From a virus (lineage: Duplodnaviria; Heunggongvirae; Uroviricota; Caudoviricetes): a stretch of 4,606 nucleotides of DNA. The stretch lies in IMG/VR virus record IMGVR_UViG_2737471846_000015; one strand, written 5' to 3'. Position numbers: made by a program. Shown one piece after another: positions 3,001 to 4,606 of the stretch (its first letter is position 1; every line of letters begins with the position of its first letter).

Positions 3001-4606
3001 CGCGATCAACCAAATCGCCCACCGAGATAAGCAGGTCTTTTTTGGTGTCGAATCCTATCGTCTCCAGTTTTTTCATCAGGTTCGTGTAGCATCCGTGCAG
3101 ATCGCCAACTACCCAAATATTTCGGTATTTGCTGCCATCAATTCTTTCGTAGATATTCATGCAACCTCACTTCTGCTGTTTCGCAGTTTTTTAAGTTTCT
3201 GTTGATACTCCGCCTTGATGGCCCTGCACTCTTCGACAGTCCAGCGATAGCGGTTATGGTTTGATTCGATTTCCTCTACTGCTTCCTGCCCGATGCGGCT
3301 AATCAGTTCGACGCGATACGGAACGAGATTTCCGCTTTTGTGCTGGTTGCACACCACGCATTGCTTGTGAATATTGCGTTCATCAAATCGGAGTTGAGGT
3401 GCCGCAGCAGTTGTCCGGTAATGTCCGGCATCCCACTGAGCAGACGTGAGCGTTCCGCACGAGATACATGGTAAGTCGCGGTCTCTTTCTCTGATGAAGG
3501 CGTTTACGGCTTGTTGGGCTTGTTTAATCCAGTAACTGCGGGGCTTTAAGGCGAGTTTTTGAATCTTAAGTTTATCTTTCTGTTTCTGCTCCTCTCGTCG
3601 TCGTTTCTTCTCTGCTGCTTTTTCCGCTTTTTCGCGTTCTTTGCTTCGTCGTTCGAATGCTATCTTGGTTCCACACTCTGGAGAGCACCACCACTGATTG
3701 GCGAATGCAGGGTGAAACCATTCCCGACATTCATCGTTTTTACATCGTCTTCGCGCTGGTTTAGCCATCGTCTTCTTCCTCGTGCATCGAGCTATTCGGA
3801 TCGCTCATCAGCTCTGCACAGCAGTACTCACACACGTGAACTTCCAGCACATGCAGCTTCTGACCGCAATTAGCGCACGTTAAAGCCCGCTCGACGCTTT
3901 CTTGTTCGTAACTTCGATTTGGGTCAATCACCTTGTATTCCTCGCACGATGTCTTAGCCACCGGATATCCCACAGGTGAGCCGTGTAGTTGAAGGTTTTT
4001 ACGTCAGATTCTTTTGGGATTGGCTTGCGTTTATTTCTGGAGCGTTTCGTTGGAAGGTATTTGCAGTTTTCGCAGATGATGTCGGTGATGCTTCTTCGCT
4101 GTCGCCTCATGCCGCCCTCCTGACGCCCTGCCCGATCGCCATCAATGCCGCTTTGGATACAGTAGTAAACATTCGTCGAGGACTGATGAACGGTCGCCAA
4201 ATCAGCAGCATGGAGCCTTTGCTGTTTCCCTTCTTCTCCAGCCCTGTCGATGGTTCGATAAAATTAATCCGTCCATCAGTGATGATGCGAACTTCGTCAA
4301 CACTCTCCAGAGCCTTGCTGAACCATCCGACTGACATATCCTCTGGCACAAGCATAACTACCGTCTGTCGCTGTTGTATGCACTGCTCAGCGGCTTTTTC
4401 CACCCACGGCCTGATATTGCTGTACGGTGGGTTATTCCAGATTGCACCGTGGCTTATCCACTCAGAATTTAGCGCGTCGTCGGCCTCAGTTAACCAGTGA
4501 GCGCACAGAGCATTTTTGTCGCTCGCTGCCGAATCCAGCCAGAATCCAAACTCAATATCCAGTGCATCAAAAAGCCAAAGCGGCGTTTGAACCGCCCCGG
4601 GAATCC

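Follow-up and report, generated by a model that had tools for sequence, protein, structure and literature searches.

Gene content at the right edge of the window

The right-hand part of the window (the whole 4,606-nucleotide stretch of viral DNA analysed here) carries a lambdoid nin region on its minus strand, with ninE, ninF, ninG and a NinI-like Ser/Thr phosphatase gene as same-strand neighbours of a phage-derived methyltransferase gene (Table 1). Past the phosphatase gene lie a Q-type antiterminator gene and, on the opposite strand, an LpxR-family gene. Translation of the minus strand at 4107-4604 gives 165 sense codons followed by TGA (4107-4109), stop-free up to the window edge, and the two remaining minus-strand frames contain many stops. 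The tetrapeptide NPPY is read directly from the codons AAC CCA CCG TAC at 4433-4422.

A preliminary description of this DNA, made from the sequence alone, had pointed to a methyltransferase frame that carries NPPY, is open to the edge and was missed by the ORF track, and all of this is borne out. The ORF list omits ORFs that run off either end of the source sequence, and its sole entry in the methyltransferase frame, against the 165 open codons, is a 98-aa GTG ORF (4107-4403). The product of this ORF starts downstream of NPPY and is without the N-terminal half and the catalytic motif. No in-frame ATG, GTG or TTG precedes its GTG within the window.

Table 1 Features of the methyltransferase remnant and its immediate surroundings (window coordinates).
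Feature	Position	Strand	Basis
ninE	3928..4110	-	PF05322, E 7e-43; RefSeq CDS L002 9928-10110
Part of phage-derived nin-region N6-adenine methyltransferase gene; codons 16-175 of 175 plus TGA	4107..4589	-	Profiles, VT2-Sakai identity, megablast
First canonical in-frame start, GTG	4401..4403	-	ORF list and translation
NPPY, motif IV of N6-adenine methyltransferases	4422..4433	-	Direct reading and conservation
Conserved block FWLDSAAS (family consensus F-x-L-D-A-A-A)	4521..4544	-	64-sequence alignment
QTPLWLF, kept part of the N-terminal conserved motif (intact: KDxWQTPxWLF)	4569..4589	-	Alignment
IS629 terminal inverted repeat, first 19 bases (TGAACCGCCCCGGGAATCC)	4588..4606	+	Identical chromosome and alignments
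ATT in the IS repeat, RefSeq start of the 165-aa CDS (WP_064756364.1, MPGAVQTP...)	4602..4604	-	RefSeq CDS

The methyltransferase belongs to the PF05869/TIGR01712 family

Profile searches of the kind proposed in the preliminary description matched in all three libraries used and, together with NPPY, confirm a phage-encoded N6-adenine methyltransferase. The 165-aa translation matched Pfam PF05869, 'DNA N-6-adenine-methyltransferase (Dam)', with E 2.8e-59 and 200 bits (cutoff 28.1), NCBIfam TIGR01712, 'phage N-6-adenine-methyltransferase', with 238.5 bits (cutoff 97.05), and PHROG phrog_111, 'DNA methyltransferase', with E 5e-79, so that both PF05869 and TIGR01712 scores lie above the curated cutoffs; 263 homologs were found at E 1e-5 or better. 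The matches are incomplete at one end: PF05869 is covered from model position 13 to 167 of 169, leaving the N-terminal 12 positions unmatched, and TIGR01712 from position 15 to 165 of 165, compared with 1 to 165 in an intact protein.

All invariant columns of the family core are present, including NPPY and the F-x-L-D-x-A-A block. In an alignment of 64 homologs the N and both P of NPPY are invariant and the Y is at least 90% conserved; in the FWLDSAAS block, a candidate for the AdoMet-binding motif I by its sequence, F, D and one A are invariant and L is nearly so. The complete N-terminal segment, S-x-T-P ... K-D-x-W-Q-T-P, is absent and QTP alone remains of it (P invariant, Q and T at least 90% conserved), and the protein is therefore a truncated rather than an intact member of the family. 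The region thus comprises the 3' 91% (codons 16-175) of a lambdoid nin-region N6-adenine methyltransferase gene of the PF05869/TIGR01712 family.

Residues 6-165 are identical to residues 16-175 of VT2-Sakai orf32 (NP_050531.1) at 159 of 160 positions, the lone change being a conservative V to I, and by this measure the gene would essentially be an allele of orf32. The first 50 kb of the VT2-Sakai record, the part inspected, have no annotated methyltransferase besides orf32, and we therefore take orf32 to be M.EcoVT2Dam. In the passage of a methylome paper (PMC6602927) that cites Radlinska & Bujnicki 2001, the target of M.EcoVT2Dam of prophage VT2-Sa is given as 5'-GATC-3', and the parent enzyme of the gene described here probably methylates GATC.

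The DNA from 3900 to 4589 is 97-98% identical to that of Stx2 phage 86, mEp213, 434, HK97, SfI and Sf6 and of several hundred further lambdoid or Stx phage records. These phages carry the gene, under the annotation dam or DNA methyltransferase, between ninB, or another upstream gene, and ninE. The ATG of ninE overlaps the methyltransferase stop codon (ATGA at 4107-4110), a 4-bp overlap also present in Stx2 phage 86 and VT2-Sakai, which is the normal coupled arrangement in lambdoid phages. The window gene shares NPPY, the position directly upstream of ninE and the ATGA overlap with VT2-Sakai orf32, HK97 gp62 and the methyltransferases of Stx2 phage 86, mEp213, 434 and SfI, all of which have the same length. 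Downstream, ninE, ninF, ninG and the phosphatase gene follow as in intact phages; upstream, IS629 replaces ninB. Whereas intact genes of the VT2-Sakai type have codons 1-15 (MTIKSNTPAHNKDCW), the ATG, ninB and the early operon, the window gene has IS629 sequence fused to it instead.

In several database proteins (P0002, P0005, P0011, P0013, P0022, P0038, P0092) PF05869 is fused to domains of adjacent nin-region genes or to further phage domains, among them NinE (PF05322), PF05269, PF05866 and PF05772; these are most likely gene-calling artefacts of frameshift or read-through, or mosaic junctions.

Relation to canonical Dam

The gene had been described as Dam-family, which holds for the small PF05869/TIGR01712 family but not for the canonical family of E. 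coli Dam and T4 Dam, which are alpha-class enzymes matching Pfam MethyltransfD12. A Pfam scan at E up to 0.01 returned PF05869 and no other family, and thus no D12-class match. Searching all PDB chains with the sequence of the intact protein gave nothing meaningful (best E 0.25 and 0.73, unrelated proteins), and folds were therefore compared through an AlphaFold2 model of an intact 175-aa homolog (P0001), built from the 64-sequence alignment (mean pLDDT 86.8, pTM 0.84). In Foldseek this model matched E. coli Dam chains only marginally (E 0.04-0.12, TM 0.32-0.36), which, with the Pfam result, argues against membership in the canonical family. Its best PDB matches were to the catalytic domain of CAPAM/PCIF1, a cap-specific adenosine N6-methyltransferase (6irx, 6irv), with E 9e-6 and a query-normalised TM of 0.60.

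With canonical Dam the enzyme shares the chemistry of N6-adenine methylation, the (N/D)PPY motif and probably, going by the M.EcoVT2Dam passage cited above, the GATC target. In contrast to canonical Dam, which has a separate DNA-recognition domain, a protein of 175 aa would leave no room for one. With CAPAM/PCIF1 the modelled homolog shares a Rossmann-type N6-adenosine methyltransferase fold, but identity is 14-16% and CAPAM/PCIF1 is a much larger eukaryotic RNA enzyme, so that the likeness, as modelled, would be one of fold only and no sign of family membership. Sequence and model together suggest a minimal N6-adenine methyltransferase of about 175 aa, reportedly with Dam's site, in a separate sequence family.

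An IS629 copy replaces the 5' end of the gene

Intact genes are 528 bp long, encode 175 aa and start with MTIKSNTPAHNKDCW followed directly by QTPLWLF. By megablast, 224 phage records cover at least 80% of the query, and the 25 of them that were listed all stop matching at 4587-4589; most E. coli matches likewise end there, short of 4606. A four-way DNA alignment places the join with intact genes exactly at Gln16 (CAA, 4589-4587), with unrelated sequence upstream. The junction is ambiguous by 2 nt because the TG at 4588-4589 is common to the IS repeat and the Gln16 codon.

Four complete genomes, and no others, match the whole window at 99.8-100%: in E. coli 2013C-4830 and 2012C-4227 the chromosomal match is at 100% identity, in strains 90-3040 and 2013C-3492 at 99.8%. 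The exact dam/IS629 junction was found in 4 of the 5,426 complete E. coli genomes searched; the three genomes besides 2013C-4830 have the same 120-bp junction as one aligned piece. Strains 90-3040 and 2013C-3492 are O172:H25, clonal complex 119, and genomes of the CC119 lineage carry 31-40 IS629 copies (PMC10132054).

In 2013C-4830 (locus L002) the plus strand reads, from window position 4588, TGAACCGCCCCGGGAATCCTGGAGACTAAACTTCC... and leads into an IS3-family transposase gene. The 1309 bp at L002 10588-11896 align end to end, at 99.8-99.9% identity, with copies annotated 'IS629 transposase OrfB', and the N-terminus of OrfA matches an IS3 transposase model. Both inverted repeats were read directly, the right one (...GGAAACCCGGGGCGGTTCA) ending at L002 11896. 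The element thus shares with IS629 (IS3 family, synonym IS1203) the terminal repeats TGAACCGCCCCGGGAATCC... and ...GGAAACCCGGGGCGGTTCA and a near-identical 1309-bp sequence. Where an intact gene would have the phage sequence ...GACTGCTGG...ATG upstream, this chromosome has IS629, and beyond it a tyrosine-recombinase (integrase) fragment without its N-terminus, then mlrA. A simple insertion would be flanked by a 3-4 bp target-site duplication, but the IS flanks in L002 are GTT and CCG. This mismatch indicates that a deletion or rearrangement adjoins the element, and fits deletion or recombination between IS copies.

Two other accounts of the breakpoint were rejected. An ordinary mosaic boundary between phage alleles at 4590-4606 is discounted by alignment of this segment, from its first base, with about 2,200 near-full-length plasmid IS629 copies, and by the presence of both IS inverted repeats. 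A simple insertion, which would leave the 5' end of dam beyond the IS, is discounted by the integrase fragment found there and by the lack of a target-site duplication at the L002 flanks.

In RefSeq the transposase of this IS629 copy (L002 10642-11854) is flagged 'frameshifted' and not 'programmed frameshift', and the copy may itself be inactive. Independent IS629 copies occur near the same gene in two other genomes: in E. coli O145 RM11626-C1 (L006 2588-3897) within dam at codon 8/9, where GGC is duplicated at the target and an intact ninB follows beyond the IS, and in O145:H28 RM12581 (L005 2644 onward) about 35 bp upstream of the dam ATG, bordering a truncated ypjA. The repeated presence of IS629 near the 5' ends of nin-region dam genes may reflect a local target preference or simply its high copy number.

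Start codon, promoter and expression

The preliminary description had placed the true start of the gene beyond position 4606, which is contradicted by the end of homology to intact genes at 4589 (codon 16 of 175) and by the IS629 repeat at 4588-4606. Extended past the edge in 2013C-4830, the frame continues as RTSGEKRVFLVILFTSFSGSLVSR-IPG... for 27 codons, mostly IS-derived, with no ATG, GTG or TTG before a closing TGA. The possibility raised at the time, that a stop just outside the window would make the frame a fragment, or that similarity to methyltransferases would be missing, holds in spirit for its first part, the gene being a fragment, but not for its second, the similarity being strong.

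RefSeq annotates a CDS at L002 10107-10604 (window 4107-4604), unflagged and not as a pseudogene, and NCBI lists the identical sequence, beginning with M, under WP_064756364.1/ALL94289.1. ATT is a permitted but very weak bacterial initiator. The nearest purine-rich stretch that could plausibly serve as a Shine-Dalgarno sequence, AGGAAG, lies 13 nt upstream of it. A crude consensus scan of both strands of L002 10000-11000 found no sigma-70-like site, which leaves room for read-through or weak outward transcription from the IS. The ATGA overlap with the upstream gene that is present in intact phages, which suggests translational coupling, is gone here. The nin region is normally transcribed from the pR-driven early operon, and this operon is deleted in the 2013C-4830 prophage. 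Given the weak ATT, the distant AGGAAG, the lost coupling, the lack of a promoter-like site in the scanned interval and the deletion of the pR operon, the remnant is most likely not expressed at useful levels.

A terminator-like hairpin with a T-run (CCGGGGCGGTTCAAACGCCGCTTTGG CTTTTTGATG) spans the IS629/dam junction (L002 10600-10575; window 4575-4600, minus strand) and, if real, would be a further block on read-in transcription. One such hairpin was found in the junction region against 1.1 expected in shuffles, and it was set aside as probably due to chance.

Loss of conserved N-terminal residues

In the 64 homologs (58-98% identity), and also in an alignment of 24 homologs, S5, T7, D13 and W15 are at least 90% conserved and stand directly before Q-T-P, so the 15 lost residues are not a variable leader. 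The IS-derived residues IPGAV take the place of the lost N-terminus, with G and V standing for D13 and W15. In gamma-class N6-adenine methyltransferases the 'aromatic-x-T-P' motif X contributes to the AdoMet pocket. QTPLWLF may correspond to such a motif-X-like element, and by analogy loss of D13 and W15 would impair catalysis. None of the invariant core columns is missing from the 160 kept residues, and the gene body shows no visible decay. Part of the lost segment may be flexible and dispensable, since residues 1-10 of the model of the intact homolog have a mean pLDDT of 53.

A start-less remnant in a degraded prophage

The locus is in all likelihood a 5'-truncated remnant of an M.EcoVT2Dam-type gene, without promoter or start, in a degraded prophage at the mlrA/yehV locus of CC119 STEC. 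The sequences directly show which gene this is, where it breaks off, the IS and the deletion beside it, and that conserved residues and canonical starts are gone, and we place high confidence in the structural account that joins gene, breakpoint, IS and deletion; that the remnant is functionally dead follows less directly and is held with somewhat lower, though still good, confidence. A deletion associated with the IS629 copy abutting the gene at window 4588 took codons 1-15, the native ATG, the ribosome-binding site and ninB and reached into part of the prophage int next to mlrA (yehV), so that the replication, immunity and recombination genes, and with them the pR-driven early operon, are gone. 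What is left is a transcriptionally orphaned gene with no canonical start in a decayed prophage, and any trace product made from the ATT in the IS repeat would be without four near-invariant N-terminal residues.

Two simpler readings of the open frame are ruled out. That it is a chance open frame, or encodes some other protein that happens to contain NPPY, has practically no probability left: a tetrapeptide by itself is weak evidence, and this is all that speaks for such a reading, whereas full-length family matches at E 1e-59 to 1e-79 in three libraries, the 263 homologs and the modelled homolog, which has a methyltransferase fold and finds its best solved matches among N6-adenosine methyltransferases, speak against it. 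Hardly more credible is an intact phage Dam gene that merely starts past the edge. The frame is indeed open to the edge and intact homologs are just 10 codons longer than the 165 seen here, but over its last 17-19 bases the window departs from every intact gene in the DNA alignment and matches the end of IS629, the identical chromosome of 2013C-4830, examined in detail, continues into IS629, the integrase fragment and mlrA, and the in-frame extension reaches TGA with no canonical start.

The rival that deserves more weight, though unlikely, is a still-working enzyme, either the 165-aa MPGAV-Dam fusion or a longer, CTG-initiated form, that would add GATC methylation after starting at a non-canonical codon inside the IS629 repeat on a transcript that comes from read-through or leaves the IS by weak outward transcription. 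In its favour, the CDS annotated by PGAP is precisely this one, the methyltransferase core is intact and the extreme N-terminus of the family model is of low confidence; moreover, the annotated start of the 174-aa CDS at the O145 insertion (L006) lies just as far from the IS629 transposase start as in the window, and this CDS apparently uses the same IS-internal ATT. A recurring ATT call, however, reflects the behaviour of an annotation pipeline and not expression, and the fusion has no canonical start, no promoter-like site in the scanned interval, its nearest plausible Shine-Dalgarno sequence 13 nt away and no D13 or W15 beside the invariant TP. It would also be redundant in Dam-positive E. 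coli, leaving nothing to select for activity. A bolder and very improbable extension of the same idea is that the terminal repeat of IS629, read outward from its left end, acts as a portable translation start, supplying an in-frame ATT and the five codons for M-P-G-A-V, and perhaps weak outward transcription, so that wherever IS629 inserts into the 5' end of a gene an N-terminal fusion would be expressed; if so, remodelled active GATC methyltransferases would be present in EHEC prophage remnants, both here and at the O145 insertion. The reading as an unexpressed remnant is preferred over both, and WP_064756364.1 probably represents the product of a pseudogene, its start having been called at a non-canonical ATT within the IS repeat.

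The suggestion in the preliminary description that a phage-encoded Dam could alter host methylation or protect phage DNA is accordingly unlikely to apply to this prophage, which has a nonsense codon in Q and has lost its replication, immunity and recombination region. The biological weight of the remnant is small, as the host already encodes a Dam. Databases and literature already cover the gene family, where it sits in lambdoid and Stx phages, its reported specificity, IS629-driven decay of EHEC prophages and the CDS itself. The locus holds a lesson for annotation: the window edge is an IS boundary, and an open frame at an edge should not be assumed to continue.

Prophage decay and neighbouring genes

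The Q antiterminator gene (PF06323; window 161-850, minus strand) differs from the intact 229-aa Q of O145:H28 RM12581 by a change of W107 to a stop codon at 530-532. This single nonsense codon is the reason that the gene is seen as two ORFs of 134 and 98 aa, and in RefSeq it carries a pseudogene flag for an internal stop. Further left lie IS600 and fragmented tail-fibre genes, and the Q nonsense codon, IS600 and the tail-fibre fragments are together consistent with general prophage decay.

On the plus strand, window 1324-2283 encodes a 319-aa LpxR-family lipid A deacylase (PF09982, E 7e-40; phrog_2309 over its full length). It is a cargo gene ('moron') of the nin-Q region, flanked by the phosphatase and a Q fragment on one side and by YlcG and Q on the other, and is conserved at this position in hundreds of E. 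coli genomes. At window 2427-2498 on the minus strand, immediately downstream of the phosphatase gene, RefSeq marks what is left (72 bp, C-terminus missing) of a second antitermination protein; the survival of this fragment suggests that the LpxR segment arrived by recombination that cut an earlier Q gene.
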